64,000 nucleotides of DNA from Candidatus Bathyarchaeota archaeon. GTDB taxonomy: Archaea; Thermoproteota; Bathyarchaeia; Bathyarchaeales; Bathycorpusculaceae. Location: positions 64,001 through 128,000 of the forward strand of contig CAVRFW010000013.1 in assembly GCA_963720565.1 (NCBI GenBank), written 5' to 3'. Below the pieces are notes generated by a model. That model worked only from the letters and a program-made list of their open reading frames with translations. It did no database searches and was not told the DNA's origin. The position numbers and the translations under genes were made by a program. Shown here in pieces: positions 7,578 to 29,875 of this stretch (position 1 is its first letter; each line of letters starts with the position of its first letter).

Positions 7578-9108
7578 TCAGCGTACGCTTAGGTCCTCTT
7601 CTTTGCCTCTTATTATCTTCTTGAATACTTCGGCGCTCTTCCTGCTTGTCCGCAGCTTCGTTTCCAGATCAACCGAACACAACCCAAACTTCAAACCGAA
7701 ACCCTTAGCCCACTCGTAGTTGTCTGTCAAGGCCCAATGGAAGTATCCGCGAACGTCAATTTTCTCTTCACCCACAGCCTTCTCCAAAACCTTCAGGTGC
7801 TCGACCAAATAGCTTGGTCTAAGCGCGTCTTTTGCATCTGCGACACCGTTTTCCATTACGTACAGTGGCTTCCCATATGTTTTCATCGATTTCAAGGCAT
7901 CAAGTAATCCTTGTGGATATATTTCCCATCCTGAATCCGAAGTCTGCTAACCCATCGGCGGATTTCGAATTAGGCTGGCAGCCGAAACCATAGCCGGGAA
8001 CTATCTCTGGAACTGCAGAGACTCCCATAAACAACTTGGCCAAGATAGAGGTTTTTCCTTTCACCACAAACCTTGTATAATAGTTCACGCCCAGCCAGTC
8101 GAGGCGCTGCCCAAGATAATTCTTCGTTTCTCCTTTCTCTCTTGCTCCATTGAGGTTTTCATCCAACCAGCCACTGCAAACAGAATTTATGAAGAAATGA
8201 TTATGCATGTTATCCATGAACTCCGCGGCTTTAACATCTAACCTGTTATCTGCAGAAAGAGGGACGGTCGGGATCACGTTATGTATCAATCCAACGTTGG
8301 CAGCGCTGCCGCTTCCCCTGTCGGCTTTGATAGTATCCATCTTCTTTATAACGTCAAAGGCGCGTGCATGAGCGACAACCAGGTGCCGAGCCACTTTTCT
8401 TGAAGCCCTAAAATTGTTGAGCCCCGGAGGAAAACCAGACTCTGCTATAACGTAACCCGTCTCAGGCAACACCGCAGGCTCATTGAAAGTCGCCCAATTA
8501 TCTACCACATCCCCAAACTTCCAAGAAATGTAAGCCGCATACTTTGTGAACTCAACAACGGTGTTTTCGTCAACCCACCCTTTCAAACCCCTACGCAATC
8601 GCGTATCACGAACGGTTATCGGATCATGAATCCATAAAGGCAAAGTGAAATGATTCAAACACACAAACACTTCAAGGCCGTTAGCCCGTAAATCTTCTAT
8701 CACACGTCGATAGTGGCTTACCGCGTCTTTGTGTGCGATTTTCTCCAGATCTTCGAGAGCAGACTCGTCAACGTCTATCTTAGCTATGTTTCCATCGGAT
8801 GCTCTTTCCACTCCGACTTCAACGGCGGATGTGCTCTTGGGAAAAATTCTGCTCCATTCAATCCCAGTCCTGTAAGCGTTTAAACCAAGCTTCTTGGCAA
8901 GGGCGTGGTCTTGCTTGTAGAGACTCCAGTAGTCTATACCCTTTTCAGGCAGATCACCGCTAACGATGCCCTTCTGCACGTTCAATGGGTCCAGAACCCA
9001 GACGTACCAATCCGAGTTACGATCAATATTCTCTGAAGCCAAATCCCCCATCTCAAACTGAAATCCGCTATTCGAAACCCCCCACAGAAAACTCCTTGGA
9101 AAGACCAT
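7578..9108 (-). CDS. Glycoside hydrolase family 1 beta-glycosidase (LacS/BgaS-like), one frameshift near 7900-7950
   Basis: FLWGVSNSGFQFEMG, TFNEP acid/base, LGVNYYTR in ORF 7900-9141; VMENG nucleophile and DNYEWAKGF in ORF 7578-7895. Confidence 0.9.
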
Positions 9109-9258
9109 AATCTTACCTATTCGATACCCACCGGACGCCATTATTAAATTTAGCTTCTTGAAAATAGCAGTTGCGCCCGCTTTTCTTCTAACATGCCATT
9201 ATACCCAAATACAGTCTTTCCGTGTACTAACGAGCTAAACCTTTCGCGATGTCATATA

Positions 9259-10887
9259 TCACTTCTTTCTGGAAAAGATATGAGGCAAAGAGGATAGTTC
9301 TCCCACATAGAAGCCTAATCGGGGCACAAACTGTTCTCCAATAACTATTGCTTTCTGAATCGGGGCGTCAACATAGAATCTCATGAAGCAATTTCTGCAA
9401 ATTACCTCAAAAACAAACAGGAGTTTGCTTCCGTCAGAATGCAAATTTTTGTATTCGATGAATTCATGGCAGAACGGGCATTTTACCCTTAAATCATAAT
9501 TATGAGGAGAGTTCATCTCATATTCAGAAGGCATGGTATGCCTACAATGTTTGATATTTAATCTCAGGATCCTTCTTTCTAATTTCTTTATGTCGTTGTC
9601 GCTCATCTTGTCTGTTATATTCAAGTATTCGTAGCTCTGGGCTCCTTCTTGTAATCGTTCTTTAACAAAAAGCACTTCATTCTTGATTAGGCCTTTTTGT
9701 AGGCAATGTTCGTATATTTTGCTACCAGGGTACGGCATCACAAAGGCCAAACGAACTTGACCTTCAGCATTTCCTATCCACCAATCTAATGTTTGCTTCG
9801 CGGTCTCATTGGTTTCTGCAACATCTCCAAAAATGAAAGTAGCGGCAACATTCATTTTTTGTCTGATTGTCTCATGAAAAGCAAAATCAATCTGTTCGGG
9901 TTTAATCGCCTTTCTCATGCTTCTGAGAACAACAGGACTAAAACTCTCAAACCCATAAGATACCGTTGTGCAACCCGCGTCTTTTAGCAGATGAAGTAGG
10001 TCCCGATCAACATGGCAAACCATCACTTGACAAAACCATTTTATGTCCTTCTCTTTCATTTTCATTAGGTTTTTAATTTCCGAGCAGAATTCTTTTGTTC
10101 TTTCCTTGTCAAGAGAGAAGCAGTCATCATATATTTGTAGGAAATTTACGTTATATTTGTCAACAGCCATTTCAATTTCAGACATTATGTTCTTTATGCT
10201 TCGTTTTCGGTAATGCCCGTAGTGGTAACAGAAAGTGCATTGAAAAGGACAGGATCTGCTTCCAAGCAGCGGGTATACTCTGGGGCTATCGAGAATAGTT
10301 GTCCATATCAGAAAGTTGCTGTGCGAGTTGTCTAGCTGTTTTTCGAATTCTAAGCCCTCATAGTCAGGGAATGGTATTGCATCTAAATTCTCTATCGGGT
10401 TCCGTTTTTCAGTTATTACAACCTGGTTTCCGTCCCTGAATACTATGCCTCTTACACTCTGTAGGTTTCTATTATTAGCAATAGAGTCAATCAATTCCAC
10501 AACAGTTTCTTCGCCATCACCTATTACGCCAAAATCAATCCCGAATTCCGCGAATACTAATTTAGGCATTGTTGTAAGTATCGGTCCTCCCAAGATTATC
10601 TTGGGTTTTGTGGTATGATTTTTTGCGGTATCGATAATCTTTTCTATCACAGAATAAGCAAGTGCATTGCCACCTGTGCACACAAAATCATATTTTTTCC
10701 GGTTTAGCTTGCTGTTCAAAATATCCTTAATATTTCCAGGGTAATGGTTTAGGTTCAGAGCATCAACATTATGGTTCGCTTTTTTTAGGACAACAGATAT
10801 GTAACTTAAACCTATGGGGAATAAGTAGTCAAAATTTTCCGTCAATTTGTCAGAGTATCTGGGTACTACTAGCAGTATTTCCATCAA
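9259..10887 (-). CDS. B12-binding domain radical SAM protein
   Basis: PIGLSYI and ILGGP B12-binding region, SRSCPFQCTFC, YGFES; C-terminal CxxC..CxxC. Confidence 0.9.
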   Translation of the reverse strand: MMEILLVVPRYSDKLTENFDYLFPIGLSYISVVLKKANHNVDALNLNHYPGNIKDILNSKLNRKKYDFVCTGGNALAYSVIEKIIDTAKNHTTKPKIILGGPILTTMPKLVFAEFGIDFGVIGDGEETVVELIDSIANNRNLQSVRGIVFRDGNQVVITEKRNPIENLDAIPFPDYEGLEFEKQLDNSHSNFLIWTTILDSPRVYPLLGSRSCPFQCTFCYHYGHYRKRSIKNIMSEIEMAVDKYNVNFLQIYDDCFSLDKERTKEFCSEIKNLMKMKEKDIKWFCQVMVCHVDRDLLHLLKDAGCTTVSYGFESFSPVVLRSMRKAIKPEQIDFAFHETIRQKMNVAATFIFGDVAETNETAKQTLDWWIGNAEGQVRLAFVMPYPGSKIYEHCLQKGLIKNEVLFVKERLQEGAQSYEYLNITDKMSDNDIKKLERRILRLNIKHCRHTMPSEYEMNSPHNYDLRVKCPFCHEFIEYKNLHSDGSKLLFVFEVICRNCFMRFYVDAPIQKAIVIGEQFVPRLGFYVGELSSLPHIFSRKK

Positions 10888-15878: not shown

Positions 15879-16826
15879 TCATGGTCTGTAGCCGTTTAGA
15901 ACGCATAAAGCCAGGGTTGCAGCGGTTATGTCGGCTGTTGTTCCGGGGTTATGTCGGCTTCCCGATTCTCTGAGTCTTTTATCAAACTCTAGAATGGCTA
16001 TTTTTCCCTCTGGAGTTTCCAGTCCGCCTTTCTCGAGCATCTTGAATGCGTCAAACGATATTTCGCGCGCCTTCTCGACGCCGGCTTTTCTGGCTATGAA
16101 AGTGTCTGGGTGCTTTGAGAGAATGTTAAGGAAAGTGTGGATGATTGACGTGTTCAAGTCTCTGCTTTTAAGCTGCTCCATAATGTAGGGATAAGCCAGG
16201 TCGAAGGTTATGGGGTAGTTGTTTACCCACTCCGAGCAGATGTCATCGTAACCCGCGGCTAACTTGAAAACCTCGTAAAGCGAAACCTTGTCTTGCAGAA
16301 TCCGCGATTTCGAAGCTGGGTTGCTTACGTCCAGATCTGGCGCTTCGCCAAGACCGCTGGGCTTCGCTATGTCAATGGCCTCGTAAAGGTGAACCGCGTC
16401 TTTGGGAGTCGTTGACTCAACAGCCAACCTCAGGTTTTCCCTCAACAGTCCAAAATCAAAAACAAAATTCCTCTCGGTTCGGGTCATTCCAGCCGCAACA
16501 GCAAGGGGAACAAACAACATCACGGTGCCAAGCAACGTGTTTCCACCTTTCTGCCAAACACTAATGTCGCTTGCGCATTCCTTCATGATTTTGCCCATTC
16601 CAACCTTGCCTACGCCAAGCCTGCCTTCTGACACGGCGACACCCCTCTCAGCTGCTTTTTCGAAAGACGGCCGTGCAGCCACTGCAGAGGCGAGAAAATG
16701 CTCAACTCGCGTACCGTGAAAACCAACCGAGAAATTCACGTTTCCGGGCTTGTTAGCGCTGACCTCAAGAAGAATCGCCAACTCCAAACACTTGGCAATA
16801 TGCTTTGCTTTTTCACTTTTAGGCAT
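15879..16826 (-). CDS. citG: Triphosphoribosyl-dephospho-CoA synthase (CitG/MdcB) family, archaeal/Orf7 type
   Basis: LEVSANKPGNV, GGNTLLG, PDTFIARKAG, NPGTTADITAA motifs. Confidence 0.85.
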   Translation of the reverse strand: MPKSEKAKHIAKCLELAILLEVSANKPGNVNFSVGFHGTRVEHFLASAVAARPSFEKAAERGVAVSEGRLGVGKVGMGKIMKECASDISVWQKGGNTLLGTVMLFVPLAVAAGMTRTERNFVFDFGLLRENLRLAVESTTPKDAVHLYEAIDIAKPSGLGEAPDLDVSNPASKSRILQDKVSLYEVFKLAAGYDDICSEWVNNYPITFDLAYPYIMEQLKSRDLNTSIIHTFLNILSKHPDTFIARKAGVEKAREISFDAFKMLEKGGLETPEGKIAILEFDKRLRESGSRHNPGTTADITAATLALCVLNGYRP

Positions 16827-16939
16827 CTGGGAAAACCCGCTTGAGTCTATACTGGCTCAAAAAAAGTTTATTAACGTTATGTAAAAAGGTACAACCAATT
16901 GAACCAATACAACACCGTGGAAAAAAGGGAGGTTTTTGG

Positions 16940-17959
16940 TTGCGCGCTCGCGAGGGTGATTTGATTGAAACGGGAAACAACGTGGTTTTTGACGTGAAGG
17001 GGCTGGTGCATCCTCCCGGCAAAGTCGTTGCTTTTCCTCGTTTCATACCGTCGCCGACAGGCACCCGCAAAACCCGAAAAGGCTTATACGGGAAAGTCTA
17101 CAACCTGGCTGAACGCTTCAAATACCTCCAGGAAAACATGCCAAACCTCATAGTTCATGACCCGGTCTTCGACGAAAATCTCTGCGAAGTCCCGGACACT
17201 TCAATAACGCAGCATTATAAGCCAGCTGAAGGCCTCAGAAAACTCCGCTTCTCCCGCAAGCTAACCGAGCTAGAAAGCAAGGCACTTCGCTTCGCTGGGT
17301 CGTTGAAAGATGCTGCAGGCATCCCCTGGAACGCTGTTGGAATCTCCGGTTCCGTCCTGGTTGGTCTCTCAACTTCAGGCTCTGACATTGACCCAGTAGT
17401 CTACGGCATCGACAACGCCCGCAAGGCCTACGAGGCACTTGAAAAACTGTTAAAAACTCGGGGTTCAGGCTTTAAACCCTACAGCAATGAGGAGCTGCAA
17501 ACGCTCTTCGAGTTCCGTTCGAAAGACACTGAAATGAGCTTCGAAGACTTCGCCCGGGTCGAATCCCGAAAAGCCTTCCAGGGAAAGTTTGACGGCGTCG
17601 ACTACTTCGTGCGTTTCATGAAAGACTGGCGCGAAATAAACGAGGAGTACGGAGATTTGTGCTACAAGAACAGCGGTCACTCAAAAATAACGGCAACAGT
17701 GAAAGATGATTCAGAAGCCCTCTTCACACCATGCACGTACACACTCGAGAACGTCGAGGTTGTTGACGGTTCAAGGCTGAAGCCAATATCCGAAATTGCC
17801 TCGTTCCGCGGAAGATTCTGCCAGCAAGCTCGAATTGGCGAAACTGTAGTGGCTCAAGGAAAAATAGAGCACGTAATCAACAAGAAACAAAACACTGAGC
17901 ACTACAGAATGATAATCGGCAACAAACCCTCAGACTACATGGCACTCTCATACGTCTAA
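16940..17959 (+). CDS. Predicted pol-beta-fold nucleotidyltransferase (COG1665-like), paralogue 1
   Basis: REGD..VKGLVHP N-terminus, GISGS...SDIDPVVYG, C-terminal OB-like SFRGRFCQQA; TTG start after GGGAGG. Confidence 0.8.
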   Translation: MRAREGDLIETGNNVVFDVKGLVHPPGKVVAFPRFIPSPTGTRKTRKGLYGKVYNLAERFKYLQENMPNLIVHDPVFDENLCEVPDTSITQHYKPAEGLRKLRFSRKLTELESKALRFAGSLKDAAGIPWNAVGISGSVLVGLSTSGSDIDPVVYGIDNARKAYEALEKLLKTRGSGFKPYSNEELQTLFEFRSKDTEMSFEDFARVESRKAFQGKFDGVDYFVRFMKDWREINEEYGDLCYKNSGHSKITATVKDDSEALFTPCTYTLENVEVVDGSRLKPISEIASFRGRFCQQARIGETVVAQGKIEHVINKKQNTEHYRMIIGNKPSDYMALSYV

Positions 17960-19027
17960 CGCCGAAACTTTCAAAACCTGCTCATAATAACGCGGACAAT
18001 AAGTCAAAGTGACCTGGCGAAAACTGCCCCCTGGCGAAACCACTTCTTCAAGATTGCCCTCCACGATAACGGTCTCGTCTTTCTGGACTTGCTGGCGAAA
18101 CTCCTCCATGTACGAGAACACACGCGCCGCCTCCAGGGATTCTCCATTTCCCTCAAGAACCTCCAAGGGCTCAATGCCATAGACTGAGGGTATAAACGGC
18201 GCATCGGAATCATCAACTACTCGGGCTTTGATTCTTGTCCACCCTTTCGGTATGATGCGGCTCTTCGGATTATACTCTGAGACAATTTCGCTCCAGGCCT
18301 TCACCGGCTCAAACTCTGCCTTCGTGATCCTGCCGCTTTTCTTGTCATCGAATAACCCGTAGATCATTTTCCGCTTCTGATGCCACACGAACTCTTTGAC
18401 ACTCAAATTTTTGAGTCGCCAACGTTTCCCCTCCATAGCCTCTTCCGACTCGAACTCGTTTCTGAACCCTGAATCAGACTCGTCATAAAGTGCCTCCAAC
18501 GTTTCGCGCACCGCAATGTTTTGTTTTCTCCCGTAGACTGTCAGGTCAATGTCTGAAAAGTCAGGGTTATGAAAACCTTGAAGCATTGAACCGAACACGC
18601 CAAAACACTTTGCTGGCACGCCTGAATTTTGGGTCACCTTGTTTAGGACACGCACGGTAGCGTCAACAAGCTTGTCTTTAGACTCAATTTTCAACAAAGC
18701 CTGTAACCGTTTTTCCGGCTTTCTCGCCTCCAGAATATCTTCATGTTTCACTCCCAAAACTTTCTGGTTGAGCATTTTGTGGAGAACGGTGTACTGCGGA
18801 TATTTGTCGAAGACGAGTTTCATGCCTTCGTCGTTGTAGAACTTGTAGAAGAGCTGTTTGCCTCCAGTTCTTGGGGCGCGGGGGTCGGTTGACGAGAAAA
18901 TGTTGGCTGAGGCATATTCAGCGTCGCAGATGTAGGCTTTCTTGGGATGGGAGTAGCCAAATACTCTGAAGATTAAGCCTTCCTTGGTGATTATTCCATC
19001 GCGGTCTCTTAGGTTTGCACGGGCCAA
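17948..19027 (-). CDS. Predicted pol-beta-fold nucleotidyltransferase (COG1665-like), paralogue 2
   Basis: RDRD..VFGYSHP, GVFGS...[19 protein letters not shown]. Confidence 0.8.
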
Positions 19028-20049
19028 ATGTTCTCTTCCTCTGAGGTAGCGGTTCCAACGACGACTTGATGATGGATTTCGCCAGTCTTGACACATTCAA
19101 CCTGCTCTAGCTGCCCCGAAACTTTGATTTCATTGCCTTCCCGAGCCACGTTTCTGTAGCATCCAATATTAGAAACCACGAGCTCAGGTATCTTATCCAA
19201 GGGCAGCTCCGATGCTGCGTCTAAGGGTTTGTACTTGGCGATTTTGTATGTTGCTGGGCGAAACATGGCTTCTGAGTCATCGCTGACTACGCAGTTGAAG
19301 CGAACTGGCTTGATGGGAGAAAACCGGAATTGACCGTACGTGGTGTTTATTTCTTCAGGTTTTCTTGTGGCGTTGTACATGAATATCTTCTTTTTGTATC
19401 GGCCTTGGAATTTCCGGGCGGCGTCCAACCGGTTGCCGATTATGTAGCTTAGCTTGCCAGCTTCCACGAGTCGAGAAATCGTTTTTTCCACGATTCGAAA
19501 GTTCTTTGAACCATAGACAACGAAGTCTATATCCGACTCCGGCGCATGCATATTTAGGGCAATGGAACCGTGAATCCCAAAATCCTTCAGGCTAACACCT
19601 GACTCTTCCGACAGGGATAGGACAAGATCCAACGCCATTCTCTGGAGTTTGTCCGGGTTTTTCAAACGGATTAAAGCTTCTAAACGATCCCTTGGCACAA
19701 AAACCAGCTCAATCCTGCCCAAGGGAGCGATAATCAGCTCCTTTTTGCGCAGATAACAATAGTAAATGTACTCAGGGAAGTGTGCACGTAGAGTCTCGAT
19801 GAAAGACTTGTAGTTCTTGGCCGTGTAGAGTTTTTCTGCACGGAAAAGCTTTCTGCCCTTGTAATTCCATGTCCGCTCCAGCATCTCAACATGAAAAAGC
19901 TCTCTAAAATCAGAGGGAATGTACTTGAGAAACGCAAAAACCCGGTCTATCGGGTGTTCATATCCAAAAGTGTTAAGGATGAAACCGTCTTTTGTTACGA
20001 ATGTATCTCCATCGGCTGGAATCCAATCAGTAACCTCCACTCTTCTCAC
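19009..20049 (-). CDS. Predicted pol-beta-fold nucleotidyltransferase (COG1665-like), paralogue 3
   Basis: ADGD..TFGYEHP, GIHGS...[19 protein letters not shown]. Confidence 0.8.
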
Positions 20050-20205
20050 ACCGCGAATATGGTTATGCCATTAACTAAAAAAGCTATTGCACCTCGCCGT
20101 TTCGGAACAATGATACAACGCGATTTGGCTAAACAATCTGACTCTGCGCAGTTGGCAATGAACCGCTTCGTTAGAATTAGCATTCTCTATAGAAAGTAAC
20201 TCTGA

Positions 20206-20553
20206 TCAGACGAGTTTGTTACAGTCTGTCTCGACCTTTTCTAGCCATTCGTTAAACTCGCTTATGTCGAGTCCTCCTCCAAGGTCCGCGTCAAGTCGTC
20301 TCTGCACCTTTCCCTCAACCAGAAAAATTGCTGTTGGCACAGCTTCAATATTGTAGTCTTCCCACAATGGATTACTGTAATCATCGATTCGCACCATCAG
20401 AAAAGCGGCGAACTTGGATTCTGAAGAGGCTCTTTTGAAAACCGGCAAAAATCGAGTGCAGAAAGGACACCAAGAAGCGTAGAATAGTGCCAGAACCTTT
20501 TTCTCCTTAAAAAGCTGGCTTTCCAGATCCTTCCTGCTGGTGACTTCAATCAT
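20206..20553 (-). CDS. Thioredoxin family protein
   Basis: FYASWCPFC and cis-Pro AVPT. Confidence 0.9.
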   Translation of the reverse strand: MIEVTSRKDLESQLFKEKKVLALFYASWCPFCTRFLPVFKRASSESKFAAFLMVRIDDYSNPLWEDYNIEAVPTAIFLVEGKVQRRLDADLGGGLDISEFNEWLEKVETDCNKLV

Positions 20554-20742
20554 AAGTTCAATCTGAACTTCTTACGTCATTCTTAAACATGTCGTCTGCT
20601 AAGGCAACATAAGAAGCCATTTTGTCAATGGCAAATCTGTAAATTTGCAGAGTAGAGAAGGCTCTCCGAAACAAGAAACAGGTTTAGGCAACATCCTATA
20701 TACATGATTTCACAGTCATTTACAAAAGCCAAAGTGAATTTT

Positions 20743-21469
20743 TTGAAACCAAAGACAAAGTACAAACGCGGATATGCTGTAGCAACACTGATAGGTATTG
20801 AAGAGACCAACGGGGTAGTGTGGAAGGTCTTTAGTCACGTCGCCAAACATGAGAGAACAATAACCCTGAACGAATCAAGAGACAGCCTGAAATCCTTATA
20901 CAATTTTCACGAAGCAATAATTAACACTCTCAGACCTATTCTAAGAGAGGGTGTTAGGAGCATAATCTTGGCGTCACCTCCCAGGACCAACTACTCGCAA
21001 GAATTCGTTAGGCATGTTCGCCAACACCACGCTTGGCTTAATCAAGGACCCAGCAAAGCAATGCTGTCTGAAATTACAGGGTCAGCAAGTACCCAGTCTC
21101 AAGTAGCTGCATTGACAAGAACCGCAGCGTTCCATGAACTTGTTGACAAAACCACTCTGGAAGAAACAGAAAACCTGCTCGATCTGCTGGAGAAACGACT
21201 CAACACCTCAGACAACAAATACGCTGTGCTGTTTTCGCTAGAAGAAGCAGAAGGCATAATACTAAAACATCAGACAACCGAGCGAACCTGAACCTGAGTA
21301 TCTTCTGCTCACGGACACGTACCTGGCAAACACCCGCCAGAAAAACCGTTTGCATCGACTAATGCAGATTGCCGCAAACAGAAACGTCAAAACCAGAATC
21401 GTGAACGCTGAATCTCAAGCCGGAAAACGCATCACACAGTTGGGCGGACTCGTATGCCTAGTGCATTAG
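20743..21469 (+). CDS. Pelota/eRF1-like protein containing only the M and C domains (frameshift near 21280)
   Basis: ORF 20704-21291 continues in another frame as EPEYLLLTDTYL...VKTRIVNAESQAGKRITQLGGLVCLVH* (TAG 21467-21469), matching the pelota end VVSTEHEAGSKLLALGGIAALL. Confidence 0.7.
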
Positions 21470-22192
21470 TCCAGAACGTTTCAGTTCTTCAATTGAAATC
21501 TTTCCAGAGTGCAGAGCCGTCGCAGCCAAAACACCATAAACGCCTATTTTCTTCATCTCAAGCAAATCTCCCAAGTCCCGAACTCCACCGCCTACAAACA
21601 ACTTTACCATGGAATTTGTAAGGGCTGTTTTCAGAATCTGGGAATTTATTCCTTCCCCGCTACCAACTCTTGCCAAGTCCAACACGATAAAACTCTCAAC
21701 ACCAACTCTCTGAAATTCACTAAGCAAAGCCAACGGTTCAGCGAACTCGCCCGACGGAAGTTGGCTGAGCAACTTGTTTCCCATCAAATCAATACTCACG
21801 ATGACCCTTTCGCTGCCGAAAGTCTCAACAGCTTTCGCGACGAAGTCCATGCTTCGCAGAGTTTCTGTTCCAATAACAACCTTCGACGCGTGACTTTCCA
21901 AGACTTTTTCTGCTTGTTCAATATTCGCCACGCCGGCATCCACCATCAACTCGAGCCCTGTTTTCTCAGCAATGCGTCTGTATATGGCGTAGTTTGCCTT
22001 GTTTCCAATAATAGCGTCCAGATCTGCGAGGTAAAGATCTTGAAAACCGCACTCTTTGAAGGCAGATGCAACCTCTAAGGGGTCAGCAGAAGAACACAGC
22101 ACGCTCTTGACTGGCTGATAATATTTTCTTCGACCCCTAACCGCGTGAACAACAATGCCGCCAAGAATGTCGATGACGGGTACTATCTTCAA
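21458..22192 (-). CDS. HisA/HisF-related TIM barrel, H4MPT/MFR-linked Orf17 type
   Basis: MKIVPVIDILGGIVVHAVRGRR..YQPV, YLADLDAI, LDLARVGSGEG, GGGVR. Confidence 0.85.
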   Translation of the reverse strand: MKIVPVIDILGGIVVHAVRGRRKYYQPVKSVLCSSADPLEVASAFKECGFQDLYLADLDAIIGNKANYAIYRRIAEKTGLELMVDAGVANIEQAEKVLESHASKVVIGTETLRSMDFVAKAVETFGSERVIVSIDLMGNKLLSQLPSGEFAEPLALLSEFQRVGVESFIVLDLARVGSGEGINSQILKTALTNSMVKLFVGGGVRDLGDLLEMKKIGVYGVLAATALHSGKISIEELKRSGLMH

Positions 22193-22333: not shown

Positions 22334-23065
22334 TTGAAGCTACTCATAAGTCCCGTTAACGAAAGTGAAGCCATGGAAGCAATCGCTGGAAAAGCAGACA
22401 TCATAGACGTTAAAAACCCAAGAGAAGGCGCGTTAGGCGCGAACTACCCTTGGGTAATTTCGAGGATCAGGCAGCTCGCTCCAAAAGACATTGAAGTGAG
22501 CTGCACCATAGGCGAAGCGCCTAGCCTCCCAGCTACCATGTCGCTGGCTGCTTTAGGAGCGGCATCAACGGGTGTGAACTACATCAAAGCCGGTCTTTGG
22601 GGTTTAAAAACAACCAAAGAAGCCGTTAGCCTATTGCAGAATATTTCCAAGGCAGTCAAGGAATCACACCCGACGATCAACGTGGTTGCAACAGGGTACG
22701 CGGACGCCGAAAGAGTAGACACAGTAAACCCTATGTGCATCCCGGAGATAGCCTACAAGGCCAATGCGGACTTTGCCATGCTCGACACTGCAATCAAGGA
22801 CGGGAAAAGCCTCTTCACCTTCCTCGAGAAAGAGCAACTTAAAACTTTCATCTCCAAAGCTCGGGATTTCGGCCTCAAAACAGCATTAGCCGGCTCGCTC
22901 AGCAAAGAGGATTTAGTTACAATCAAAGAGTTAGGGCCGGATGTTGTGGGTTTAAGAGGTGCAGCTTGCGCCAACGGAGATAGGGCAAACGGTCAAATCA
23001 CAAGGGAAAAAGTGCAAGAACTCACTAGCATCCTCAAGCACGCAGCCAAAGAAAGCCCCACTTGA
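22334..23065 (+). CDS. mfnB: (5-formylfuran-3-yl)methyl phosphate synthase
   Basis: LLISP..EA.EA...ADIIDVKNPREGALGAN, MLDTAIKDG, ALAGSL, GLRGAAC. Confidence 0.95.
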   Translation: MKLLISPVNESEAMEAIAGKADIIDVKNPREGALGANYPWVISRIRQLAPKDIEVSCTIGEAPSLPATMSLAALGAASTGVNYIKAGLWGLKTTKEAVSLLQNISKAVKESHPTINVVATGYADAERVDTVNPMCIPEIAYKANADFAMLDTAIKDGKSLFTFLEKEQLKTFISKARDFGLKTALAGSLSKEDLVTIKELGPDVVGLRGAACANGDRANGQITREKVQELTSILKHAAKESPT

Positions 23066-23077
23066 ACTAGGTGAAAT

Positions 23078-24227
23078 ATGCCGTTGCGAACCAAAGGGCT
23101 AACAAAAAAAGCCGTCGTGGTCGAACTGAAGAAAGCCCTAGAGCAAGACTCGAAATACTCTGATGGAAAAATTTTGTGCTCAATGTGCACCCGACCCCAT
23201 CCCATCGCTAAGATTGCTAATCGCCTGTTTTTGGAGTCAAACCTGGGAGACCCCGGATTATTTCTTGGAAGCCTTAGGCTGGAAAGAGAAGCCATTAAGA
23301 AGTTGGCAACTTTTCTGAATGGAGAAGGCAGTGTCGGCTTCCTTGTTTCAGGAGGAACGGAGGCAAATCTGATGGCGCTGCTGGCAGCAAGAAACATGAA
23401 AAACATTGGCAACCCAGAAGTCGTATTGCCCAGAATCAGCGCATTTTTCCTTCACGAAAATCTGTGGTTTGCTTGGATTGAAACCAGTCTATGCGAGTCT
23501 AGACGACTCGTACAGGGTTGACGATGCGTCGGTGGAGAAGTGTTTGACATCCAAAACCGTGGCGATGGTTGGCACGGCTGGGACAGCTGAGCTGGGTGTG
23601 GTTGACCCGATTGCTAAGCTCTCAGAAATCGCGGTTAAAAACGAAATTTACCTTCATGTAGACGCCGCTCTAGGCGGCCTCATAATTCCGTTTCTAGAAC
23701 CCTCAGACCGTAGCAGTTTAGCCTTCGATTTTCGGTTGGAAGGGGTAAAATCAGTTACTGTTGACCCTCATAAGATGGGAATGACGACACTCCCGGCTGG
23801 CGGGATTCTGTTCCGAAACAACAATTACCTAGACTGCATTAAGACAGAGACGCCTTATTTAACAGAAAAACATCAGCACACGATAGTTGGAACAAGAACC
23901 GGAGCAGCCGCAGCAGCAACATGGGCCGTCTTTGAAACCTTAGGCCGCGAAGGATTCCAAAAGATTACTAGACAATGCATAAAGCTGACCCGGCTACTAG
24001 CAACGAAACTTGATGCGTTTGGCTATGGCCTTGTTGTCCAACCGACGTTGAACATAGTTGCTTTCCGCAGTTCAAATTCAAGTTTGCTTCACAAGAAGTT
24101 ATTGCAGCGTGGCTGGTTTGTCTCCTATGTTCCACGTCTAGACTGCGTGAGAATCGTGATAATGCCTCACACCAAGAAGAATCATATCCATGCTTTCCTG
24201 CGGGATCTGCGCAACGTTGATAGGTAA
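23078..24227 (+). CDS. mfnA: Tyrosine (aspartate) decarboxylase, one frameshift near 23430
   Basis: ILCSMCT.PHP, NLGDPGLF, SGGTEAN; SAHFSF, HVDAALGG, TVDPHKMG. Confidence 0.92.
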
Positions 24228-24281
24228 TTAGGAAAAAGCTTTTAGACTCAACCTTTTCTCTTCGACTTTGAGAGAACACCT

Positions 24282-25509
24282 TTGCGGATTCTGGTCTACG
24301 AGTACCTGTCAGGAGGAGGCGCAGCCAAAGAACCGATTCCTCCAGACATGTTAAGCGAAGGCTTCGGAATGCTGAGAACGCTAATCTCAGATTTCAAAGC
24401 AGCAGGAAACAACGTAACAACTTTCCTGGACAAGCGACTTACAGTTTTCAGTCCGCCCTTAAACGCCGACAACGTTATCCCGGCCTCTTCGTGGCAACAA
24501 GCAAAAAACACAATTGAAAATATCTCTGGTGCCTTCGATGCAGCATACATTATTGGACCAGAAACAAACCACATCACTCCAATCCATTGTCGAAACCATT
24601 GAACAAACATCCTTGACCTCGCTAAACTGCCCCGCCAGCGCGATTGAGCAAGCATCAAACAAAATGAACCTCTACAAACGCCTCAAACAAAGAGGAATAA
24701 GCACACCAAAAACGATAATGCTCGACGTTTCAAACAAGAAAGAAGAGAGTTTGCAGCTTACAGAATGCCAACTCGAGTTTCCATTGATGTTTAAACCTCT
24801 GGACGGAGTAAGCTGTAGTGGGTCAAGCATCGTTCATGACAAGACTCAAGTGGCCGCTGCTGTCTCCAAGATACGAAAGGAATCAACAGACAAACATTTT
24901 CTCATTCAAGAGTATTTGAAGGGAACTGCCGCCAGTGTTAGCTTGATTGTTTCAAATCAAGGAGTGCGGCCTATCAGTTTGAACAAGCAAGATTTGACCA
25001 TATCAAAGCCTGGAGGCACCTCTAGTTATGACGGAGGCTTGGTTCCGTTTGATGATCCGCTGAGGCAGGAAGCCTTTGCTGTTGCAGCGAAAGCGGTAGA
25101 ATCCTTCGAAAACCTGAAAGGCTACGTTGGAGTTGATTTAGTCTTAACGGAAAAGGAAGCTGTGGTAATAGAAGTTAATCCTCGCCTAACTACGTCGTAT
25201 GTGGGTTTGAAACAAACTGCAGATTTCAGCGTCGCCCAGGCCATTGCTCACTCTGTTTTGGAAAACCGCCTGCCCGACGATGTTCAACTTCGCGGTTATT
25301 CATGTTTTGGAAAAGTTAAAACACGCAAACCAGCAGCTAGTGTTCTTCAGAAAACCTACAAACTTGAGGATCTCGTGTCTCCTCCTTTTCCCACGAGCAC
25401 CGCCGGCGCATGTGCCCTCCTTCAGCACCATGGATCAACTATTGATGAAAGCGTGGCAGGACTAATTAAAGCGAGGAAGCATCTTCACAGAATATTGAGG
25501 GGAGGCTGA
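24282..25509 (+). CDS. mfnD: ATP-grasp tyramine-glutamate ligase, one frameshift near 24570
   Basis: MRILVYEYLSGGG..EGFGML; KPLDGVSC, SLNKQ, GYVGVD, IEVNPRLTTSYVGL; operon context. Confidence 0.85.
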
Positions 25510-25512
25510 ACA

Positions 25513-26595
25513 CTGGCGAACTATGTCGGCTTAGATATTGGAGGCGCAAATACAAAAGCCGTATTCATAAGCGTAGACCAGGGTCAGTTACGCGGAACTA
25601 AAGTCAAAATTGAATATTTTCCGATATGGAAAGACCCTGAAAAGCTTGTGTCGACGCTTCGTAAACTTCGAGAGTGGCTAGGCAAAGTCGAAATCACCGG
25701 TTTAGGTGTAACCATGACGGCTGAACTCTCTGATGCTTACCAAACAAAACGAGAGGGTGTTAATCACATATTGGCGTGTGTTGCCAAAGTCTTTCCCGAC
25801 ATTCCCGTTGTCGTCTTGAATGTGGACGTGGCTCTGCGGCCTTTGAGTAATGCGCTGTCGGAACCGTTGAAGGTTGCGTCGGCTAACTGGGCAGCAACTG
25901 GCTGGCTAATTTCTCGGCTGGTCAAGGACTGTGTCGTGGTTGATGTTGGAAGCACGAGCACCAGCATAATTCCCGTTGTCGGAGGGCGTGTATCATGCGA
26001 TGGAAAGACGGATTTAGAGAAACTGGCTAATGGAGAACTCGTGTACACGGGCGTCTTGCGTACGAATGTGGCAGCCATGGTCAATGATGTTCCAGTTGGG
26101 GAAACGTGCTCGAGGGTTTCTTCTGAACTGTTCGCTCTGTCCGGTGATGTGCATCTGATTCTGGGAAACATAAAGCCGGAAGAATACACGGTGGAAACTG
26201 CAGACGGTCGGGGAAAAACTCGTTATGAAGCCTTGGCTCGACTTGCCCGAGTTGTGTGCGCTGACACTGACATGCTCAGCGAACAAGAGCTTTTGCCCAT
26301 GGCACAATACATCTACAACAGTCAACTCGAACAAGTAGCCAATGCCTTAAAGCAAGTTCTTGAAAGAACGGAACTGGCTGCAAAAAAGAGAGTCACGGTT
26401 GTTGTTACGGGAATCGGAAAGGAATCTGTCGCTCGAAGAGCAGCAGAGAAATCTGGCTTCCGCGAGATCGTTGACTTGGAAGATCTGATACACAACGTCG
26501 AAGCAGCTAGGGCTTCGCCCGCCTTCGGCGTTGCTCTTTTAGCCGCAGAAAAGTTGGAAGAGAGGACATTTCAATGGACGCCGTTGTCAAAGTAG
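25513..26595 (+). CDS. mfnF: Hydantoinase A-like methanofuran coupling enzyme
   Basis: GLDIGGANTKA (upstream of the listed ORF start; CTG start at 25513), GVTMTAELSDAY, ASANWAATG, DVGSTSTSIIP, ETADGRGK. Confidence 0.9.
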   Translation: MANYVGLDIGGANTKAVFISVDQGQLRGTKVKIEYFPIWKDPEKLVSTLRKLREWLGKVEITGLGVTMTAELSDAYQTKREGVNHILACVAKVFPDIPVVVLNVDVALRPLSNALSEPLKVASANWAATGWLISRLVKDCVVVDVGSTSTSIIPVVGGRVSCDGKTDLEKLANGELVYTGVLRTNVAAMVNDVPVGETCSRVSSELFALSGDVHLILGNIKPEEYTVETADGRGKTRYEALARLARVVCADTDMLSEQELLPMAQYIYNSQLEQVANALKQVLERTELAAKKRVTVVVTGIGKESVARRAAEKSGFREIVDLEDLIHNVEAARASPAFGVALLAAEKLEERTFQWTPLSK

Positions 26596-27386
26596 GCGGT
26601 AGCTTAGCCCAAAACCCTGCAATACTTCGAGGCTTATGCAGCAGACTGAGTGAATACGCTAGGGATTACAAGATAGTCGTTGTGCCCGGAGGAGGAAGGT
26701 TCGCCGATGTTGTACGAGAATTTGACGAGAGCTTTAGCCTGTCTCAAACAACGTCCCACAAGATGGCTATTCTGGGCATGGACCAGTATGCTATAATGCT
26801 AGCAGAAATCACGCCCGGATCGCGTTTGGTTAGCACCGTCAAAGAGATTGGAGAGTTTTCCAAAATTGGGGCTGCACAGATTCTTCTGCCATCCCGCTTG
26901 ATGTTCGAGGAAAATCCTTTGGAAAATTCATGGGACGTTACGTCAGATTCGATCGCGGCCTACGTTGCAAACCGGTTAGGAGCCGCCAAACTCGTCTTAG
27001 TAACTAATGTTGATGGAGTTTTCACGAAGAATCCCCAAGAACATTCGGATGCCAAACTGATTAAAAAGATAACCGCCAAAGAATTGCTTGCGGGAAGCCA
27101 AAGAACAAGCGTCGATAAGTTTCTTCCAAAACTGCTCTTGAAATACCCTTTTCATTGTTACGTGGTCAATGGCAAGCATCCTGAAAGGGTCAGGTCTGTT
27201 TTGGCGGGAAAACTGACGATCTGCACGGAAATACTGCTTCTTCTTCGAAGTAACCTTTCCCTTCCGAAAAAAATATTCCACAGCATATTTCTATCTCACC
27301 ACACATTCAATTTAGTTGTTGAGATGCAAAACCGTGAAGATAATCGAGAAGAACTTGCAGCAGGGCTTTGTGAAGGTGGTTCCTGA
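26574..27386 (+). CDS. mfnE: Amino-acid-kinase-family F1-phosphate kinase; the real 3' end is probably near 27250
   Basis: VVKVGGSL, VPGGGRFAD.VR, SHKMAILGMDQ, SWDVTSDSIAA, NVDGVF; operon context. Confidence 0.85.
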   Translation: MDAVVKVGGSLAQNPAILRGLCSRLSEYARDYKIVVVPGGGRFADVVREFDESFSLSQTTSHKMAILGMDQYAIMLAEITPGSRLVSTVKEIGEFSKIGAAQILLPSRLMFEENPLENSWDVTSDSIAAYVANRLGAAKLVLVTNVDGVFTKNPQEHSDAKLIKKITAKELLAGSQRTSVDKFLPKLLLKYPFHCYVVNGKHPERVRSVLAGKLTICTEILLLLRSNLSLPKKIFHSIFLSHHTFNLVVEMQNREDNREELAAGLCEGGS

Positions 27387-28594: not shown

Positions 28595-29158
28595 ATGAGC
28601 AAACGAAAGCCAATAATTCACATTCAAAACATTGTAGCTTCAGTTTCCTTGAATCAAAAGATTGATTTACAGAAGATCGTTGAAAAGTTTCCGCAAACCG
28701 AATACAATCCCAGCGTGTTTCCAGGCTTGGTCTTTCGCTTGAAAAAGCCCAAGACTGCCACTTTGATTTTCGGAACAGGCAAGATGGTTTGTACAGGTGC
28801 AAAGTCGGAGAAAGAATCGCGGAGCGCGGTGGAAAAAGTTGTGAAGGAACTCAGAAGCGAGGGGATTCAGATAACAGAAAAGCCTGTTGTGATGATTCAG
28901 AACATTGTTGCTTCTGCGGAGTTGGGCGGAGAAATAGACTTGGAAAGCCTCGTTTACAAGCTTAGTAGGGTCATGTACGAGCCAGAACAGTTCCCAGGCG
29001 CTGTCTTCAGAATGGACGAGCCAAAGGTCGTGTTCCTCATCTTCTCAGCCGGAAAGCTTGTCTGCGTTGGCGCCAAGAAAGAAGAGCAAGTCTACGAAGC
29101 TGTTGACAAAATACAAAAACTGCTCGAAGAGAAAGAACTAATCTTCTATCCCGCATAA
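28595..29158 (+). CDS. tbp: TATA-box binding protein
   Basis: Two repeats: IQNIVAS...YNPSVFPGLVFR..LIFGTGKMVCTGAK and YEPEQFPGAVFR..LIFSAGKLVCVGAK. Confidence 0.98.
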   Translation: MSKRKPIIHIQNIVASVSLNQKIDLQKIVEKFPQTEYNPSVFPGLVFRLKKPKTATLIFGTGKMVCTGAKSEKESRSAVEKVVKELRSEGIQITEKPVVMIQNIVASAELGGEIDLESLVYKLSRVMYEPEQFPGAVFRMDEPKVVFLIFSAGKLVCVGAKKEEQVYEAVDKIQKLLEEKELIFYPA

Positions 29159-29875
29159 GCCATCTTTTTCATTTTTCTACGCAACGCCGGATTCTCATCA
29201 GACAATTTCTTAAGCGCCATCTCAAAAGTTTCTTCGCTGCTTACTTCTTTTTTGATGAACACGCCTGTTCTGCCAACATTGTCTCGCTTCGTAAGAGCCC
29301 GAACGCGGTCTCGAACCGTCTCTGTTGATATTCCCAGAATTCTCGCGGTCTGCTCTTCACAGCCCATGATGCTGCTTTCAACATGTCCCCTCTCTGTTGG
29401 TTCAATCAGCATCAAACGCTTGTTGACTCCTGCCACACGCTTGTCTGCCTCTAGTTGGCTTAGGGTTGCTTCGCCTCCGAACTTGTAGAATTCGGTTTCT
29501 ACCTTGCGCATGCGGGTCAGAGAAATAGAAACGCTGGTTTTGGGGTCTATTTCGATGTAAGCTTTCACCGCATAAGTTGGGGTCGCCTGAACCAGCAAGC
29601 GATTATTAACAGTAATTTGGGCTTTTTCCAGCGCTGTTTCTACGAGGAACGATGATGCCTGTTCGCGTCAAGTGAATATCCACGTCGCTGTTCTTGGTTA
29701 CGTCTCCGCGGGCAAGGCTCCCATGAACAAGCGTTCGCAGGCAACTGCTTTCCAGTGCCTTCATTATGTGTTTGGCTTTTTCCCGATGTTCTCGAAGGAG
29801 AGCCCAACGGGCATCGCTGTAGACTATTTCTCTGAAGTCTGCACGTCTCACTGGTTTAGCCGCCATCAACATCAA
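29146..29875 (-). CDS. Archaeal minimal nucleotidyltransferase (COG2413-like), one frameshift near 29660
   Basis: VHGSLARGDVTKNSDVDI; QATP..AVKAYI, EFYKFGG, RVAGVNKRL, RD.VGRTGVF. Confidence 0.8.

Follow-up and report, generated by a model that had tools for sequence, protein, structure and literature searches.

The closest described systems to the one reported here are the gene pairs CitG and CitX and MdcB and MdcG, which make the prosthetic groups of citrate lyase and malonate decarboxylase, respectively, and in which a CitG-family transferase is genetically tied to a nucleotidyltransferase of the pol-beta fold. CitG makes an α-riboside triphosphate from ATP, and in small-molecule nucleotidyltransferases of the pol-beta type a hydroxyl group attacks an α-phosphate. 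The ribose of methanopterin is α-linked; an older scheme has phosphoribosyl pyrophosphate (PRPP) as donor, from which a simple displacement would give a β-linkage. Modified folates with related arms occur in Sulfolobus and in Thermococcales. Here we describe a locus of a Candidatus Bathyarchaeota archaeon (assembly GCA_963720565.1, contig CAVRFW010000013.1, positions 64,001 to 128,000) in which a citG-family gene adjoins three paralogous nucleotidyltransferase genes, named N1, N2, and N3 in the following, which belong to the family of Methanocaldococcus jannaschii MJ1086. The whole stretch of 64,000 nucleotides that was analyzed is referred to as the window. CitG and the MJ1086-family paralogues constitute a real and conserved module, which probably performs late steps in the synthesis of a methanopterin-type tail; the analysis shows homology, fold, paralogue classes, linkage, and co-occurrence, a published study adds depletion in transposon sequencing (Tn-seq), and all of the chemistry is inferred.

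The module and its genomic context

The citG-family gene (15879..16826, minus strand, 315 aa; Pfam CitG E-value 1.6e-68) encodes a triphosphoribosyl transferase of the archaeal/orf7 type. N1 (16940..17959, plus strand) most likely starts at TTG 16940, giving 339 aa as in close relatives; with this start, citG and N1 are divergent and exactly 113 bp apart, as an earlier note on this DNA had said. N2 (17948..19027, minus strand) converges on N1 and has 359 aa if read from a TTG start, and N3 (19009..20049, minus strand, 346 aa) lies upstream of N2 on the same strand and overlaps it. Because N1 is convergent with N2 and N3, the three paralogues do not form one transcript. Their pairwise identity is 24–29% (BLAST E-values 1e-19 to 7e-27), and the motif GxxGS-xn-SDID is intact in each of them (n = 9, 10, and 9), which agrees with the three diverged paralogues with an intact GxxGS-x(9-10)-SDID motif described before. 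The genome holds no family copy beyond N1, N2, and N3. A promoter and terminator scan of the locus, built for bacterial promoters, stayed at chance level.

Compared with the lyase-type CitG and MdcB equivalogs, the CitG of the window scores only 31–49 bits, far below the cut-offs of 272–477. It matches the gene at the orf7 position on 29 plasmid records (25–31% identity), and its bacterial relatives are annotated as citG and stand next to mch in mch-orf5-citG-fae clusters; the gene order of the plasmid citG clusters agrees with the orf7 island in the excerpt of PMC3615186. The claim that the window has no lyase or acyl carrier protein (ACP) partner genes could be extended to the 89%-complete genome, where CitX, citrate/malonate ACP, and MdcG gave 0 matches (PF03802, PF06857, PF10620), the controls being positive. 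This genome carries fwd, ftr, mch, DUF447, a frameshifted RFAP synthase gene, an MptH-like gene, and a flavoprotein gene; queries with MptA, MptD, MptE, Mtd, and DUF1464 found no match in it at the same completeness.

Of 31 related genomes, 27 possess the family, mostly in three to four clustered copies, and 20 loci of family-carrying relatives were compared. In 17 of them citG lies 25–3223 bp from a family gene, so that the linkage is conserved and not unique to this genome. Of these loci, 11 continue with fwdDBAC, 6 have mch, and 14 have the S component of an energy-coupling factor (ECF) transporter; neither a small conserved carrier gene nor any mfn gene was found in the 20 loci. The adjacency of the mfn genes, which the earlier note had read as a clue to function, was therefore rejected as such. 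A conserved winged-helix gene of about 160 aa, possibly a regulator, flanks the module in 11 of the 20 relatives (locus L031, 7737-8231, and 10 others); it is often followed by mobB and cdv cell-division genes, and the Bathyarchaeota genome itself (G000) has a copy on its contig C9 (457299-457781).

Twenty further loci from more distant genomes were chosen by hand. They contain citG in four cases, and several have unrelated neighbours. Denoting a family gene by NT, the order is RFAP synthase-DUF447-MptE-MptH-like-MptA-MptD-NT-NT in the operon of L050, NT-NT-citG-DUF447-MptE-flavoprotein-DUF1464-PTPS-RFAP synthase-MptH-like in L059, and NT-NT-ftr-NT-mtd-fwd-mch in L049; the genes of L056 and L060 also lie among ftr, mtd, fwd, and mch. 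In L047 family genes stand beside mfn genes. Among nine citG-centred loci of genomes lacking Mch, a family gene abuts citG in three (L096, L097, L101); L096 and L097 read DUF1464-NT-citG-phosphoesterase. In 11 Methanococci loci no recognised citG or pterin gene is near the single family gene. DUF1464 genes repeatedly accompany citG, family genes, and pterin genes (L059, 12587-13750; L096, L097), which makes DUF1464 a further candidate for an unassigned methanopterin step. In lineages without Mch (L041-L046), a pair of class A and class D genes (classes as defined below) abuts a gene for an APH/Kdo-like kinase of 530–570 aa and PmbA, with no pterin gene; a 32% homologue of this kinase is encoded on contig C11 of G000 (7876-9351).

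The family profile found 1431 representatives at E<=0.001 (50%-identity clusters). It matched 106 of 201 Thermoproteota genomes, from which six weak cases (E about 1e-4: G036, G050, G068, G082, G136, G197) were dropped, leaving 100. Family and CitG co-occur in 92 genomes, 8 have the family only, 2 CitG only, and 99 neither. The corresponding numbers are 75, 25, 1, and 100 for RFAP synthase, counted at E<=1e-15 (76 genomes, 59 of them above the curated cut-off), and 45, 55, 3, and 98 for Mch, which was rejected as sole marker on account of the 55 family-positive genomes without it. For the union "Mch or RFAP synthase" the values are 98/2/4/97, where both the union and the E-value cut-offs were picked post hoc and kin are not independent. 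The co-occurrence repeats over many taxonomic families. The proposed tie to methanopterin-type genes is thus seen in the profiles as well as in pterin-biosynthesis operons. MfnB, in contrast, is present in 34/201 genomes compared with 100/201 for the family, so that the methanofuran operon fails as a clue here too.

As to the presence predicted for archaea with the full tail, each of the 36 genomes searched in the Methanococci phylum has a single strong locus, which in one of them is broken into two pieces, and homologues were seen by name in Methanocaldococcus and in the Methanobacteriales Methanobacterium and Methanobrevibacter; the family is, however, also common in lineages without Mch, and further named homologues come from Hydrothermarchaeota, Altiarchaeota, Helarchaeota, and Baldrarchaeia. 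M. extorquens makes a pterin form without phosphate and hydroxyglutarate (excerpt of PMC8141765), and absence of the family from such dephospho-H4MPT (tetrahydromethanopterin) bacteria had been predicted. Absence from bacteria holds only in part: none of the 3/3 tested proteobacterial replicons that combine a complete H4MPT cluster with an orf7-type citG gave a profile match, but there is a clade with Methylophaga and Methylosarcina, considered below. A Natrinema replicon was negative with the family profile. None of the 36 plasmid records with mch and the 29 with this CitG type appeared in the results of a four-query tblastn (three queries against plasmids), which listed Streptomyces only. 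On up to 21 Streptomyces plasmid records, a full-length family member directly follows an APH-like phosphotransferase (L061, 7207-12638; L062, 6353-11020); a histidine phosphatase, a hypothetical protein of 370–380 aa and, once, methyltransferases are encoded nearby, which suggests an undescribed small-molecule cassette. On 2 of the best 80 contigs of gammaproteobacterial type, the family gene heads the order NT-HAD-RFAP synthase-ATP-grasp-mch; gnd is present on 64 of the 80. In the bacterial operon of this order at L183 (8001-12698), the HAD phosphatase is a candidate for dephosphorylating the pterin arm.

In many genomes, genes of one ECF S-component family adjoin citG, the paralogues, clusters with RFAP synthase, or mch (L185, 8286-12251; L026, L034, L056), and this family is a candidate importer of a pterin precursor. 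It occurs in 26/26 Mch-positive genomes without RFAP synthase versus 10/22 with it, according to a profile that is not specific, since it also matches two families without methanopterin markers (f20, f21). Together with the rarity of RFAP synthase in the relatives (3/31), this pattern suggests salvage of imported pterin.

Fold and paralogue classes of the MJ1086 family, and Tn-seq of its putative M. maripaludis member

MJ1086, whose family label is presumably COG1665, is a member of a 90% cluster whose representative is matched by the family profile. It is homologous to N1–N3 over the full length (27–32% identity), and HHalign related the profiles of the MJ1086 class and the N2 class with 100% and an E-value of 3e-49. 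NTP_transf_2 is above its cut-off for N2 and N3, and the residues G134, G137, S138, D149, and D151, which form the catalytic GS and DxD motifs, are invariant in 146/146 aligned family members. The predicted model of N1 (pLDDT 96.7) consists of a small barrel with weak SH3/KOW/Sm likeness (residues 1-95, Z<=4.5), a pol-beta core (residues 107-231; pol X with Z 7.9, rmsd 2.9, 89 aligned residues), and an OB fold (residues 242-339; best Z 8.3–8.9 to SSB, editosome, and MCM domains). A whole-protein match to this architecture was found neither in fold searches of the PDB nor by Foldseek at E<=0.001, and a sequence search of the PDB gave nothing at E<0.06 for any of three queries (N1, the profile of 146 rows, the class E profile). 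Kanamycin nucleotidyltransferase was a weak profile match (E 1.5); CitX and MdcG are absent from the fold-search listings, which does not exclude a likeness. A weak search for longer, fused forms found none among 8000 candidates, and phages and viral contigs gave no family match.

Phylogenetic trees (IQ-TREE in quick mode with 46 chosen rows; FastTree with 132 rows) separate the classes A (N1), B (N2), C (N3), D, which is absent from this genome, and the single-copy class E. Support is 95–100 for B, C, D, and E, 99 for A with divergent relatives, and 89 for C with D; this indicates that the copies are older than the order and did not arise by local duplication. The classes differ at the column of MJ1086 Asp229, which lies in the strand after the core helices and is the putative position of a third catalytic carboxylate. 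Here and two positions further on, class E has D and L (D in 26/26), class B E and E (E-x-E, 23/23), class A F/Y and an invariant R (33/33; F223 in N1), class C M or V and N, and class D S and H (S in 21/21); accordingly, N2 contributes a Glu and N3 a Met. An OB-fold loop likewise reads SFTHTYAGQ in E, SYxEEFRxQ in B (N2: SYMEEFRQQ), SFRGRFCEQ in A (N1: SFRGRFCQQ), SxIGxYRNV in C (N3: SNIGCYRNV), and SYEGLY in D. N3 lacks a stretch of about 25 residues of the core. Class B is found in 38/201 Thermoproteota genomes, 35 of which have Mch. Class C is found in 29/201 at E<1e-100, after five weaker cross-matches had been dropped, and B is present alongside in 29/29. Ancient classes with distinct acceptor-site residues suggest different acceptors or salvage; that A, B, and C each serve an acceptor of their own is possible, though somewhat short of likely.

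For M. maripaludis, a published Tn-seq study in rich medium is available (table S1 of PMC4418687, in excerpt; cut-offs: essentiality index EI<=6, log fold change logFC<-3.72). In five Methanococci loci the family gene follows cbiE-hypothetical-FUN14, and MMP1230 was assigned as the M. maripaludis member by this gene order and its length. With EI 2 and logFC -8.3, MMP1230 passes both cut-offs and resembles mptG (EI 0, logFC -9.18), while its direct neighbours MMP1229 (14/+0.48) and MMP1231 (8/-1.83) score as non-essential; cbiE, two genes upstream, passes one of the two tests (EI 1, logFC -2.96).

Proposed function and competing explanations

In step 1 of the proposed mechanism, the CitG-like enzyme would take ribose-5-triphosphate from ATP, with release of adenine, and attach it to the hydroxyl at the end of the pterin-aminophenyl-ribitol arm. 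An inverting attack on the β-N-glycoside of ATP would yield an α-riboside, the configuration of methanopterin; given this chemistry, CitG would donate the ribosyl group and the phosphodiester would be formed by the MJ1086 family. The product of step 1 would mimic a nucleoside triphosphate (NTP), with the pterin arm in place of the base. In step 2 an MJ1086-family enzyme would bind it via the GS/DxD motif, an acceptor hydroxyl would attack the α-phosphate, and pyrophosphate would leave. Where methanogens have the single-copy class E, (S)-2-hydroxyglutarate would serve as acceptor, an assignment for and against which we see the chances as balanced. In the present genome, whose classes A, B, and C keep the triphosphate site and differ at acceptor-facing positions, the three copies most likely either use different acceptors or trim and rebuild the tails of imported pterins.

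Several observations weigh against this reading. A C-terminal OB fold combined with a weakly SH3/KOW/Sm-like N-terminal domain is typical of nucleic-acid binders, and the activity of classes A, C, and D is not assured, as they have no carboxylate at the Asp229 column. MMP1230 was assigned by gene order and length, and the citG-like gene MMP0213 (EI 7, logFC -5.85) misses one of the two cut-offs; moreover, an essential score is common (554/1772 M. maripaludis genes) and does not name a pathway (PMC4418687, in excerpt). The union of markers has the post hoc character stated above. Markers can also mislead: H. volcanii has profile matches for CitG, Mch, and RFAP synthase, yet is described as a tetrahydrofolate user in the excerpt of PMC8305020. 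A 23-member clade contains proteins of the gammaproteobacterial methylotrophs Methylophaga and Methylosarcina, and of the best 80 contigs of this kind, many of them near-kin, 78 show none of seven H4MPT genes in flanks of up to 8 kb a side. Finally, the Streptomyces plasmid homologues (27% identity, profile E 9e-53) stand beside a kinase and a phosphatase and no pterin genes.

In a different explanation, the family would add nucleotides to RNA, DNA, or protein (e.g. a tRNA or an enzyme of C1 metabolism), a macromolecule held by the OB and SH3-like domains, and its association with methanopterin genes would reflect a shared lifestyle. The nearest structures (Z 7.5–8.9), which are SSB, editosome, and MCM domains for the OB fold and pol X, TUT7, and CutA for the core, fit this explanation, as does the KOW/Sm-like N-domain, and the essential score would equally suit a role in information processing. 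These Z values are middling by the fold tool's own scale, though, and the genes lie within pterin-biosynthesis operons of several unrelated lineages, one of them bacterial; about half of the 201 Thermoproteota genomes gave no hit, a pattern that parallels CitG and RFAP synthase and is unlike that of a core RNA enzyme. We regard this explanation as improbable. Still less probable is a CitG/CitX-like role, i.e. synthesis of triphosphoribosyl-dephospho-CoA or a similar compound and its attachment to a carrier protein. The two folds are those of the lyase systems, and L096 and L097 have a CoaBC gene close to the module, but the missing CitX, ACP, and MdcG, the low equivalog scores of CitG, the mch-orf5-citG-fae clusters of its bacterial relatives, and the 20 relative loci without a small carrier gene all argue against it.

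A role of the paralogues, or of some of them, in completing methanofuran instead of methanopterin is very unlikely as well. The mfn genes adjoin the module here and in L047, and class B is nearly confined to Mch lineages (35/38), and 29 of the 38 genomes with class B have MfnB by hand count; this is opposed by the scarcity of MfnB and mfn genes reported above and by the known linkages of methanofuran, which are ether and amide bonds and not phosphodiesters. The alternative that deserves most attention, although unlikely too, accepts the pathway and sees the three copies as one heteromeric enzyme, to which N2 would give the third carboxylate and N1 and N3 would be binding or structural subunits. 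Only B among A, B, and C has kept an acid at the third position, and C never occurs without B and is directly upstream of it in 27/29 genomes. However, B is found without C in 9 genomes, at least some Mch-positive genomes without B carry A plus D (L050, L056, L059), N1 is transcribed against N2 and N3, and all classes retain GS and DxD together with their own invariant pocket motifs.

The synthesis of a methanopterin-type tail by CitG and the MJ1086 family thus remains our preferred reading, and the interpretation given in the earlier note is, as a whole, partly supported, its acceptors, extended tail, and heteromer being conjectures. Searches of the open-access literature, outside which most of the older methanopterin biochemistry lies, found no enzyme assigned to the ribose-phosphate-hydroxyglutarate end and no function assigned to the MJ1086 family or archaeal CitG; the excerpts of PMC6787355, PMC6193120, and PMC9258230 hold nothing on the late steps. 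A wider picture, which we offer as speculative and rather doubtful, would be that the two proteins are the missing last methanopterin enzymes with ATP instead of PRPP as donor, that the fourfold radiation in Thermoproteota represents modular tail-swapping, that Bathyarchaeia, many of which lack RFAP synthase and have the ECF S component by citG, import carriers from neighbours and refit them with a tail of an undescribed kind, and that some gammaproteobacterial methylotrophs make a phosphodiester-tailed and not a dephospho carrier. Methanopterin is essential to methanogens, and the analysis names a single-copy, essential-scoring candidate and its partner in a genetically tractable methanogen. 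If the reading is correct, both enzymes are candidate targets for methane mitigation, and the paralogue classes predict that Bathyarchaeia have C1 carriers of new structure and salvage cofactors.

Adjacent genes and comparison with described systems

A HisA-like gene and mfnBADFE had been reported to follow the paralogues. They are present, but a thioredoxin-like gene (20206..20553, minus strand) and an ORF of 195 aa without a family (20704..21291, plus strand) intervene, neither of which is conserved beside the module in relatives. The HisA/HisF-related, Orf17-like gene (21458..22192, minus strand; TIGR00734 156 bits, cut-off 180) groups with the mfn genes and not with the module; orf17 is tied to methylofuran in the excerpt of PMC8141765. 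The mfnB, mfnA, mfnD, mfnF, and mfnE-like genes (22334..27386, plus strand) are incidental neighbours in this genome. Of these, mfnA (23078-24227) and mfnD (24282-25509) are split by frameshifts, as are the RFAP synthase gene (contig C9 of G000, 344653-345601; L185) and a second mch copy (contig C11, 40807-41771). As several other window genes are also split, the frameshifts may reflect faulty assembly and not gene decay. Another small nucleotidyltransferase, unrelated to the paralogues, is encoded at 29146-29875 in two pieces (89 aa + 150 aa) and is apparently one split gene.

The two-step chemistry proposed here is, we assume, the same as that of CitG/CitX and MdcB/MdcG. In contrast to these pairs, the locus has no lyase, ACP, CitX, or MdcG, and its context consists of pterin and C1 genes; the partner of CitG is a three-domain protein of 340 aa with an OB fold and up to four paralogous classes. 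Orf7 of the bacterial H4MPT clusters (mch-orf5-orf7-fae) is the same type of gene as the CitG of the window, whereas three such replicons carry no member of the MJ1086 family. The GS and DxD motifs are common to the family and to pol-beta small-molecule nucleotidyltransferases such as kanamycin nucleotidyltransferase, from which it differs in its SH3-like and OB architecture and in the proposed donor, a pterin-bearing NTP mimic. Within the family, MJ1086 represents the single-copy class E with Asp229 and the loop SFTHTYAGQ, whereas the copies of the window belong to the classes A, B, and C and have other pocket residues.

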